Shown here piece by piece: positions 58,951-59,839 of a DNA stretch of 64,000 bases. A model generated the notes under the pieces. The model made no database searches, was not told the origin of the DNA, and saw only the letters and a list, made by a program, of their open reading frames with translations. A program made the translations under genes and the position numbers. The DNA comes from Escherichia coli (lineage in GTDB: Bacteria > Pseudomonadota > Gammaproteobacteria > Enterobacterales > Enterobacteriaceae), in the NCBI RefSeq assembly GCF_009931435.1, contig NZ_CP043414.1. The stretch is one strand, 5' to 3'. How positions within the stretch are numbered: the first letter of the stretch is position 1; each line of letters begins with the position of its first letter.

Positions 58951-59340
58951 ATGGAATTTAAAGAGTTACCAAAAGAAATCCAAGAAATTGCAGCACATAC
59001 ACTTCGTCAACGTCTGAACGAAGTTGCATTAGAAGCTGAAACGAAAAAAGACATTGATAATATGGCTCGTAATGTGCGCGATGCGTTTACCGGACTGTAT
59101 TCTGTTTCTGTTGAGGACAATAACATTCCTGACGAACAGGAAGAGAGTACAGACCCCCACAAATTCTGGAAATCTGTAGAGGTCATTGCAAAAGCCAAAC
59201 TACTGGAACTTAACAACTTATATCATCGTGAGAATGATGGTCGTCAATCTTTGCATCATCAGGGAGTCGCCACCCTGATAGCTCTAACGAAAGAGCAAGG
59301 CGAATATCATCCAGTGGCATTAAACGACACTGTGAAATAG
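58951..59340 (+). CDS. Hypothetical early-left protein (129 aa)
   Basis: ATG 58951 with GAGG SD 7 nt upstream, directly after the ydfA-like stop. Confidence 0.45.
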   Translation: MEFKELPKEIQEIAAHTLRQRLNEVALEAETKKDIDNMARNVRDAFTGLYSVSVEDNNIPDEQEESTDPHKFWKSVEVIAKAKLLELNNLYHRENDGRQSLHHQGVATLIALTKEQGEYHPVALNDTVK

Positions 59341-59839
59341 TCCATCCATGTTTACGGGATAGATAAAGATATATCGCTTCGAAACCATCGACATGGTTTG
59401 GATAGCCTTCCTCAGCAGCAAGGTTATCCCCAAAACATTCAAGAATATAATTTAAACGCGCTGTTTCATAATGAATCTTCCAGCGAGTCTGATTTAGTTT
59501 GCTGACCATTTTAATTTTATCCTCCATTGAGGTTACTGGTTGAGAATGGAGACCACACGTGACAGCGCGTGGTCGTGCGCCGGACACGGATAAGAATCCG
59601 GCACAAACAGTTTACTGAAAGGATATATCCCTGAAAAGTCAGGGCATAACGCGAAAGCGCACGGCGAAGTCATTCCTCCCTTTGTTGTGTACCACTGACA
59701 TCTTCGTCTGTGCGCTTCCGGTTGTGGCAATCCGCGAAATGGCGCGGCGGTAAGTATGGCGGGGTTATTCCTTCCCCGTTGAGGACACCGGGTTGTCAGG
59801 TTGACCATACGCTTAAGTGACAACCCCGCTGCAACAACC

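Follow-up and report, generated by a model that had tools for sequence, protein, structure and literature searches.

A pair of convergent genes with overlapping 3' ends

The subject of this report is a pair of convergent genes in a window of 64,000 nucleotides (nt) of Escherichia coli DNA (assembly GCF_009931435.1, contig NZ_CP043414.1), the window being the whole stretch that was analysed. Gene A, an open reading frame (ORF) of 99 codons on the minus strand, and gene B, which encodes a protein of 129 amino acids (aa) on the plus strand, are two genes that share one conserved dual-coding overlap and are inherited together as a module beside the immunity region of a prophage. In the reading that we favour, with a probability of roughly 60%, they are bona fide genes that form a conserved convergent module of temperate Enterobacterales phages, for which we propose antisense-coupled, exclusive expression and some partner logic between the two products.

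A preliminary description of this DNA had noticed the minus-strand ORF with its GGAGGA sequence, 10-nt spacer and ATG at 59509, had seen that it overlaps the last 130 nt or so of the plus-strand gene, and had allowed that either frame or both could be real. Inspection of the sequence confirmed the ORF and its initiation signals, with the stop codon at 59212-59210, as well as the overlap (Table 1), and the comparative analysis supported both frames. Beyond that description, the two genes are a conserved and mobile module, and the minus-strand gene belongs to a large uncharacterised family.

Evidence of selection on both frames of the overlap

The pair was compared in 12 diverged lineages, which show about 60% aa identity and saturated synonymous sites. 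In 12 of 12 distinct lineages the stop codon of B lies inside A and that of A inside B, with overlaps of 92-257 nt, the length modulo 3 being 2 in every case. Roughly the final 30 codons of each gene use the same DNA. In this phase the first codon positions of A and B face each other, the second position of A faces the third of B, and the third of A faces the second of B.

Outside the overlap, each gene showed its own constraint. The 56 codons of A that lie beyond B gave pooled values of 0.80 for synonymous (pS) and 0.23 for non-synonymous differences (pN), with a pN/pS of 0.29. The conserved C-terminal part of B, here called the B core, has some 20-25 codons outside A, with a pS of 0.79, a pN of 0.385 and a pN/pS of 0.49, and with P69, F72 and W73 invariant.

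Inside the overlap, a randomisation was used in which one protein was held fixed, its synonymous codons were redrawn, and the other frame was scored for openness and pairwise identity; this null ignores shared ancestry, synonymous sites are saturated and some of the lineages are close relatives. With A fixed, the B-core frame was open in a mean of 4.0 of the 12 lineages and in all 12 in none of 5000 trials, and its expected identity was 0.21 ± 0.011 compared to 0.39 observed, about 16 standard deviations higher. With B fixed, the A frame was open on average in 3.7 of the 12 lineages, all 12 being open in none of 3000 trials, and the expected identity of A was 0.19 ± 0.012 compared to 0.52 observed.

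Synonymous variation in A pointed in the same direction. Among pairs with the same amino acid, synonymous codons of A differed in 57% of cases outside the overlap, in 50% opposite the variable tail of B and in 38% opposite the B core, where the drop was also detected per column (Mann-Whitney p=7.6e-4). The pS of A inside the overlap was 0.57, down from 0.80, whereas for B it was 0.33, lower than its pN of 0.39, because the synonymous sites of B face the second codon positions of A. A dominates the shared region, as expected from this phase.

Distant relatives of A (35-45% identity) behaved differently. A profile of B found no match at about 23 loci that carry them, and the same columns of A showed no synonymous drop (0.55 vs 0.57, p=0.75). 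Therefore, the constraint seen in the enterobacterial genes is not intrinsic to that stretch of A.

The preliminary description had proposed to compare the synonymous and non-synonymous patterns of each frame in related prophages, and had held that selection on one frame only would speak against it. Constraint was found on both. As judged by these comparisons, both frames of the overlap are under selection, and with both frames open, constraint on each and initiation signals for both, the pair can be classed as an antisense overlapping protein-coding pair.

Table 1. Features of the A/B locus, in window coordinates
Feature	Position	Strand	Description
Gene A	59210..59509	-	99 aa; stop codon at 59210-59212; not annotated in E. 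coli records of RefSeq
Shine-Dalgarno sequence of A	59520..59525	-	GGAGGA; 10-nt spacer to ATG 59509
Gene B	58951..59340	+	129 aa, WP_000394568.1; second gene of the early-left (ydfA/dicB) operon
B core	59149..59340	+	aa 67-129 (TDPHKFW...KEQ...); predicted two-helix hairpin; 12-lineage alignment
Dual-coding overlap	59210..59340	.	131 nt including both stop codons; A codons 57-99, B codons 87-129
Proximal leader of A	59510..59605	-	some 85-95 nt that also accompany A in another phage
Weak terminator-like hairpin	59126..59142	-	68 nt beyond the A stop, just upstream of the B core; from a consensus scan

Gene A and its protein family

The frame of A is open, stop to stop, farther upstream, with an in-frame ATG at 59527, and the ORF list begins it at GTG 59587. 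The start was assigned to 59509 rather than to either of these because of the alignment with 11 homologues and the conserved Shine-Dalgarno sequence: in every lineage AAGGA or GAGG stands 5-9 nt ahead of the aligned start, whose codon is kept. From this start the sequence begins MVSKLNQTRWKIHYETARLNYILECFG....

Homologues of A with 55-66% identity were found by tblastn and protein searches in phage phiSTEC1589-Stx1c, where the gene is unannotated, in Cronobacter muytjensii, in Candidatus Symbiopectobacterium and in 29 IMG/VR contigs; those of Cronobacter and Enterobacter are annotated as genes. When a profile built from three homologues was run against 1.84 billion representative proteins, the family grew to 182 clusters at E<=1e-3. 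Most members measure 90-105 aa, and some of 170-280 aa with two matched stretches are tandem duplications, among them P0004, P0006, P0008, P0010 and P0015. The duplications hint that the family proteins of about 95 aa may act as dimers.

An AlphaFold2 model of A, based on the alignment of this family, was all-helical and confident, with a predicted local distance difference test (pLDDT) score of 93.1 and a predicted template modelling (pTM) score of 0.81, and had no significant structural neighbour. By eye, its predicted secondary structure holds no helix that is long or hydrophobic enough to span a membrane. A had no match in Pfam, PHROG or PADLOC at E<=0.1, and none of 58 family members matched Pfam. 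The sole curated family with detectable similarity was NCBIfam NF033230 ('ECs1072 family phage-associated protein'), which A matched with 30.6 bits (E 3e-7) over profile positions 38-109 of 142, short of the curated cut-off of 70 bits; two distant relatives of A gave E values of 1e-10 and 1e-8. From its homologues and patterns of substitution, A is to be regarded as a real gene of an uncharacterised, predicted all-helical family.

The strand opposite the distant relatives was also inspected. At 19 of 24 such loci an antisense ORF of the same phase was present, with a vaguely similar helical pattern, often an amphipathic helix-turn-helix of the type ...AELLRL..AA..DPLL...LLAxSSLAxLxxxQ (L049 3161-3361 on the minus strand; L050-L075). 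In Luteimonas, the ATG of the antisense ORF and the stop codon of the gene before it share bases (ATGA). At L072-L075, A is a 24-codon remnant opposite an intact ORF of 58 aa, whose pN/pS of 0.4-0.6 comes from few substitutions. A B as old as the A family was considered, and it is not claimed beyond the enterobacterial clade, given that the B profile found no matches there and A showed no synonymous constraint.

Gene B and the B core

In a 100% identical E. coli genome, the Prokaryotic Genome Annotation Pipeline (PGAP) lists B as a hypothetical protein, and the opposite strand carries no annotation. B has its own translation signal, GAGG 6 nt ahead of the ATG at 58951, and in its protein a common N-terminal domain (aa 1 to ~54) is fused to the B core. 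Against PHROG it matched phrog_1363 (E 3e-38, aa 1-110) and phrog_25397 (E 1e-15, aa 61-127), both families of unknown function, as well as phrog_2151 (aa 1-54). The N-terminal 50 aa are common to a 212-aa protein of strain SJ7 that has another C-terminus.

The B core has the consensus TPxEFWxxVKxxAExxLxE...H..EVxxLxSLxKEQ. Its helices are predicted with pLDDT 70-80, and the second of them is encoded opposite A residues ~71-95. The core occurs in two forms. Eight lineages have it as a gene that stands alone (53-70 aa), with an ATG 10-13 codons before the FW motif and AGGAGG, GGAGG or AGGAG as Shine-Dalgarno sequence. Four lineages have it joined in frame to unrelated N-termini, giving proteins of 129, 166, 135 and 157 aa. 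Gene callers had found it in Serratia, in Enterobacter and in one metagenome-assembled genome (MAG), and in Enterobacter sp. AD2-3 both A and B were called, overlapping. B, like A, is to be regarded as a real gene, through to its 3' end.

The pair as a mobile module

B was present in 12 of 12 distinct A lineages, and all four loci recovered with a B-family query had A on the opposite strand, although A was N-terminally truncated in two Serratia loci. In phage phiSTEC1589 the pair lies in a different operon, after O, DnaC-like, YdaW-family and DUF977 genes, with a convergent overlap of 122 nt; upstream of A, a local blastn found only about 85 nt in common with the window (59516-59601).

In the window, in Serratia, in Enterobacter, in the MAG and in six of seven further IMG/VR lineages, the pair is located just downstream of a cI-like repressor gene with helix-turn-helix (HTH) and S24 domains, with B in the same direction. 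The adjoining repressor of Cronobacter has HTH and Phage_CI_repr matches and no S24 match; reading by eye from cI to B there, a terminator of cI comes first, then a 16-bp palindrome in a promoter-like sequence, and last the Shine-Dalgarno sequence of B.

In E. coli the module is rare, being present in 38 of 5426 complete genomes, whereas the ~87 nt beside the minus-strand start (59514-59600) were found in 967 of the 5426. The slot at ~59100-59514 is a cassette hot spot (loci compared: L002, L045, L046 and, for K-12 Rac, L047). In O157, SJ7 and ATCC 25922 it is flanked by the same N-terminal 50 codons and the same dicB-side spacer, and is filled with another C-terminal domain or a truncation plus another small minus-strand gene, WP_001133037.1 (69 aa) in O157 and SJ7 and WP_001295058.1 (64 aa) in ATCC 25922. 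The slot of K-12 Rac is occupied by sieB, convergent with the DUF1391 gene ydaF.

Lesions that inactivate A and leave B intact have arisen in at least four independent lineages, and the reverse was never seen. They comprise a nonsense mutation near codon 15 (L014-L017), a lost start (L022/23), a C-terminal truncation (L024) and a lost N-terminus (Serratia); the copies concerned are L014-L017, L022-L024, L030 and L041/L042. The bias is suggestive of A being costly, the events being few.

Leader of A and terminators

Two hairpins are predicted in the leader of A (59605-59576 and 59574-59551), and its predicted fold is better than that of shuffled sequence (z=-3.8). The leader also holds a conserved GCCKG...CMGGC element with five conserved pairs, one of them covarying (T-A to G-C). 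In all lineages the sequence upstream of A (window 59551-59605) reads GTGCCKG, 8-10 nt, CCAC-AT-CMGGC, 2-3 nt and GGTGG, and contains two complementary pairs that interleave, from which either a pseudoknot or alternative hairpins could arise.

Two candidates for signals farther upstream of A were set aside. The stretch 59574-59835 was rejected as a leader of A after a local blastn identified it as the Qin ydfC-dicF spacer, whose conservation is explained by the plus strand. A minus-strand promoter match of 9/12 at 60111-60083 lies within dicB and may be accidental.

On the other side of the pair, five lineages with stand-alone B (L005, L007, L025, L026 and L027) have an A-strand terminator, GCGYCC...GGGCGC followed by a T-run, 127-140 nt after the A stop and just beyond the start codon of B. 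Therefore, in these lineages the A transcript would cover all of B in antisense, its Shine-Dalgarno sequence included. The weak hairpin of the window (Table 1) may be what remains of the terminator at which A transcripts end in such lineages. As for an excludon-type layout, in which one long transcript is both the mRNA of one gene and an antisense RNA to its opposing neighbour, the terminator position in the five lineages fits; the window itself has only the weak hairpin at 59142-59126.

The prophage region

Over the region studied, the window and the E. coli BCE049 chromosome are 100% identical. The DNA is that of a Rac/Qin-like lambdoid E. coli prophage, of which this region forms the immunity and early-left part. 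The minus strand carries, apart from A, an O-like replication gene, a YdaT-family gene and cro. The plus strand carries a LexA/CI-like repressor gene with HTH and S24 domains (57863-58513), ydfA (DUF1391), B, dicB, a DUF1482 gene and a recE-type exonuclease gene. The earlier remark that the minus-strand ORF would be transcribed against the early-left operon fits this map, with the cI-like repressor, ydfA, B, dicB and recE on the plus strand and A on the minus strand. For ydfA, the ORF list gives 76 codons (58709-58939, plus strand, ATG 58709), and a shorter gene of 50 codons from 58787 is favoured by PGAP and by the Pfam DUF1391 match (aa 28-74).

Between the repressor gene and ydfA, a terminator-like hairpin, GGTCG...CGACC TTTTTT, was seen by eye after the cI-like gene, within 58527-58625 on the plus strand. 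Upstream of ydfA, inspection also revealed TTGACT (58580-58585) followed by a 20-bp palindrome (58589-58608) with 9-bp arms and a 2-nt centre, AAACTAAAT-AG-ATTTAGTTT, which together resemble an early-left promoter and operator; a consensus promoter scan called no promoter at 58527-58625. From TTGACT and the palindrome, B would therefore be an early, repressor-controlled gene.

Downstream of the pair, 59574-59835 matches the K-12 Qin ydfC-dicF spacer at 86% identity. In place of DicF, the plus strand has an unrelated sequence (59836-59905) that ends in a terminator (GGCGGGTATC...GATACCCGCC CTTTTT); it may be a variant small RNA (sRNA) in the DicF position. The Rfam DicF model had no match in the window at E<=1, and no Rfam family matched in or beside the A/B pair. 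Sub-threshold matches to Rfam STnc100 were found at window 59909-60063 on the plus strand (33.5 bits, E 8e-5) and, over the full model, in Cronobacter (41.5 bits, L005 3635-3827). In both cases they lie just upstream of a dicB or kilR-type gene, on the strand opposite A, and they are probably a conserved leader or sRNA of cell-division-inhibitor genes.

Proposed function and alternative explanations

Our best guess is that A and B are a lysogeny/lysis gene pair coupled by mutual antisense, with a possible partner or antidote logic. B, or its core, would be an early gene directly downstream of an SOS-cleavable cI-like repressor, transcribed from a repressor-controlled early-left promoter. A has its own ribosome-binding site and leader and points back toward cI from the slot of Rac sieB. 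Tentatively, and at rather less than even odds, we propose that A is transcribed apart from the early-left operon, probably in lysogenic cells, which is also the expectation for sieB in Rac. The mRNA of A would be antisense across the whole B core up to the terminator and, after induction, early-left transcription would run antisense into A. Convergent transcription and RNA duplex formation would then make A and B mutually exclusive across the switch from lysogeny to lysis. B would be among the first products after repressor cleavage and would act on A or with it, as antagonist or partner, in a self-immunity or antidote logic akin to that of P22 SieB/Esc/sas.

In a more specific and rather doubtful version, A might be an effector expressed in the lysogen (exclusion, abortive infection or toxin-like) and the B core its antidote, the overlap providing inseparability and reciprocal antisense silencing. 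If true, this would amount to a double lock, protein-protein and RNA-RNA, within the same ~100 nt, and to a previously undescribed two-protein module.

Several observations weigh against the proposal. No sigma-70 promoter was identifiable for A, with no convincing one in the ~90 nt that travel with it, and conservation farther upstream is no argument for one, because that stretch is mostly the Qin ydfC-dicF spacer seen from the opposite strand. B is apparently absent from most of the wider A family, and therefore A is evidently workable without it. A model of an A-linker-B fusion had a pTM of 0.51, with pLDDT 70-80 for the B helices, and came with no interface read-out; as it gave no contact or predicted aligned error output, it is uninformative on A-B binding. 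The lesion bias consists of few events, and A is the larger mutational target. Finally, on both strands the genes are known here from sequence alone.

The main alternative, unlikely as we consider it, is that both genes are real and their overlap incidental, the two being convergent neighbours that share 3' ends, kept by inertia, with no regulatory or functional link. It agrees with distant A-family members functioning without a recognisable B, with the inactivation of A in several prophages to no visible effect on B, and with a link between the two that is so far one of sequence and map. Inertia is harder to reconcile with the relocation of the pair, as a pair, to a different genomic context, and with the finding that within this clade either gene comes with the other opposite. 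The phase, too, has stayed unchanged despite saturated synonymous sites, and the stop codon of B has shifted repeatedly, as the range of overlap lengths shows, yet always remains within A. Moreover, the A-strand terminator is sited so that the A transcript spans all of B, and SJ7 exchanges an alternative C-terminal domain together with an alternative minus-strand gene as one cassette.

Explanations with a single gene are very unlikely. The proposal that only A is functional, and that the B core is a non-functional read-through tail mirroring it, is improbable, although the phase lends it some plausibility: the synonymous positions of B face second positions of A, with the pS of B below its pN in the overlap, the motif SLxSLxKEQ in helix 2 of B mirrors the conserved RLALSxEM of A, and similar mirror ORFs stand opposite the distant A relatives with no sign of constraint. 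A mere mirror would not account for the conserved B-core codons outside A with their invariant residues, nor for the eight lineages in which B stands alone with a strong Shine-Dalgarno sequence at a fixed distance from the FW motif, nor for in-frame fusion to four unrelated N-termini. It would leave equally unexplained that the synonymous variation of A falls opposite the B core only, that the identity of the core lies so far above the A-only expectation, and that B is intact where A is broken.

That only the annotated plus-strand gene is real and A a chance open frame (shadow ORF) can be dismissed with near certainty: PGAP does not call A, A has no Pfam or PHROG family and its copy is broken in some E. 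coli prophages, whereas more than half of its codons lie outside B under clear constraint, its 182 homologous clusters are mostly of 90-105 aa, its AlphaFold2 model reaches pLDDT 93, its Shine-Dalgarno sequence and start codon are conserved, and its homologues are annotated in two other genera.

Comparison with known systems

Antisense overlapping genes are already known in bacteria; new here are the partial, 3'-to-3' overlap, the conservation across genera, the mobile domain partner and the travelling of the two genes as a pair. Literature searches with the B accession, ECs1072 and antiparallel overlapping prophage genes returned no description of the A/B pair. In two studies that used RNA-seq and Ribo-seq, the antisense pairs of E. 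coli O157:H7 EDL933 are described as novel ORFs embedded in annotated genes (PMC9927249), and those of Pseudomonas aeruginosa as embedded ORFs that are evolutionarily novel (PMC8850804). As in the pairs so presented, A and B would be proteins from both strands of one DNA, the second gene was missed by annotation pipelines, and the evidence consists of intact frames, translation signals and selection. Unlike the pairs so described, A and B overlap partially and 3'-to-3', keep sizeable non-overlapping portions, are documented from sequence, are both conserved across genera with saturated synonymous sites, and move as a module.

The position of A recalls that of Rac sieB, which lies between ydaF and kilS/kilR and is convergent with ydaF (4-nt overlap); A is likewise convergent with the gene after ydfA (DUF1391) and stands ahead of a DicF-like element and dicB. 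Prophage early operons are known to contain accessory genes, such as sieB, that lie in antisense and have transcription of their own. By sequence and family A is unrelated to SieB, and it has no Pfam match, only the Rac genomic slot being common to both, and in contrast to SieB the modelled A protein would be a soluble-looking, helical protein of 99 aa. The P22 precedent has, in the corresponding region, an exclusion protein, SieB, an escape protein, Esc, which counteracts the exclusion, and an antisense RNA, sas, which switches it (PMC12197685). The P22 antagonist is made from within the gene of the protein that it opposes, whereas the candidate partner of A is a separate protein from the opposite strand.

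With type I toxin-antitoxin systems, A/B has in common the convergent units, the complementary 3' ends and the prophage setting. Type I pairs such as txpA/RatA and bsrG/SR4 of Bacillus subtilis have convergent, 3'-overlapping transcripts, through which one partner can control the other by RNA-RNA pairing, the antitoxin being a non-coding RNA and the toxin a small hydrophobic peptide. Both partners in A/B are conserved, soluble-looking proteins, which sets the pair apart from type I. It also differs from type II systems, in which the two genes lie side by side in one direction within an operon and the folds of toxin and antitoxin can be recognised. Like the NF033230 family, A is phage-associated and of unknown function, and unlike the members of that family it is a remote relative, with a partial match under the cut-off.

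Significance

These results add an unannotated gene to E. coli prophages and define a protein family of ~180 clusters that has no Pfam or PHROG entry. To our knowledge, few antisense dual-coding regions of bacteria are well supported, and most of those described so far consist of a young ORF inside an older gene. The A/B pair spans genera, shows measurable constraint on both frames and has relatives without the partner as an internal negative control, which makes it a clean case in which to ask how the same DNA can encode two proteins. Located at the immunity region and in the slot of Rac sieB, it is a candidate for a new prophage exclusion and self-immunity device, or for a toxin/antidote device.

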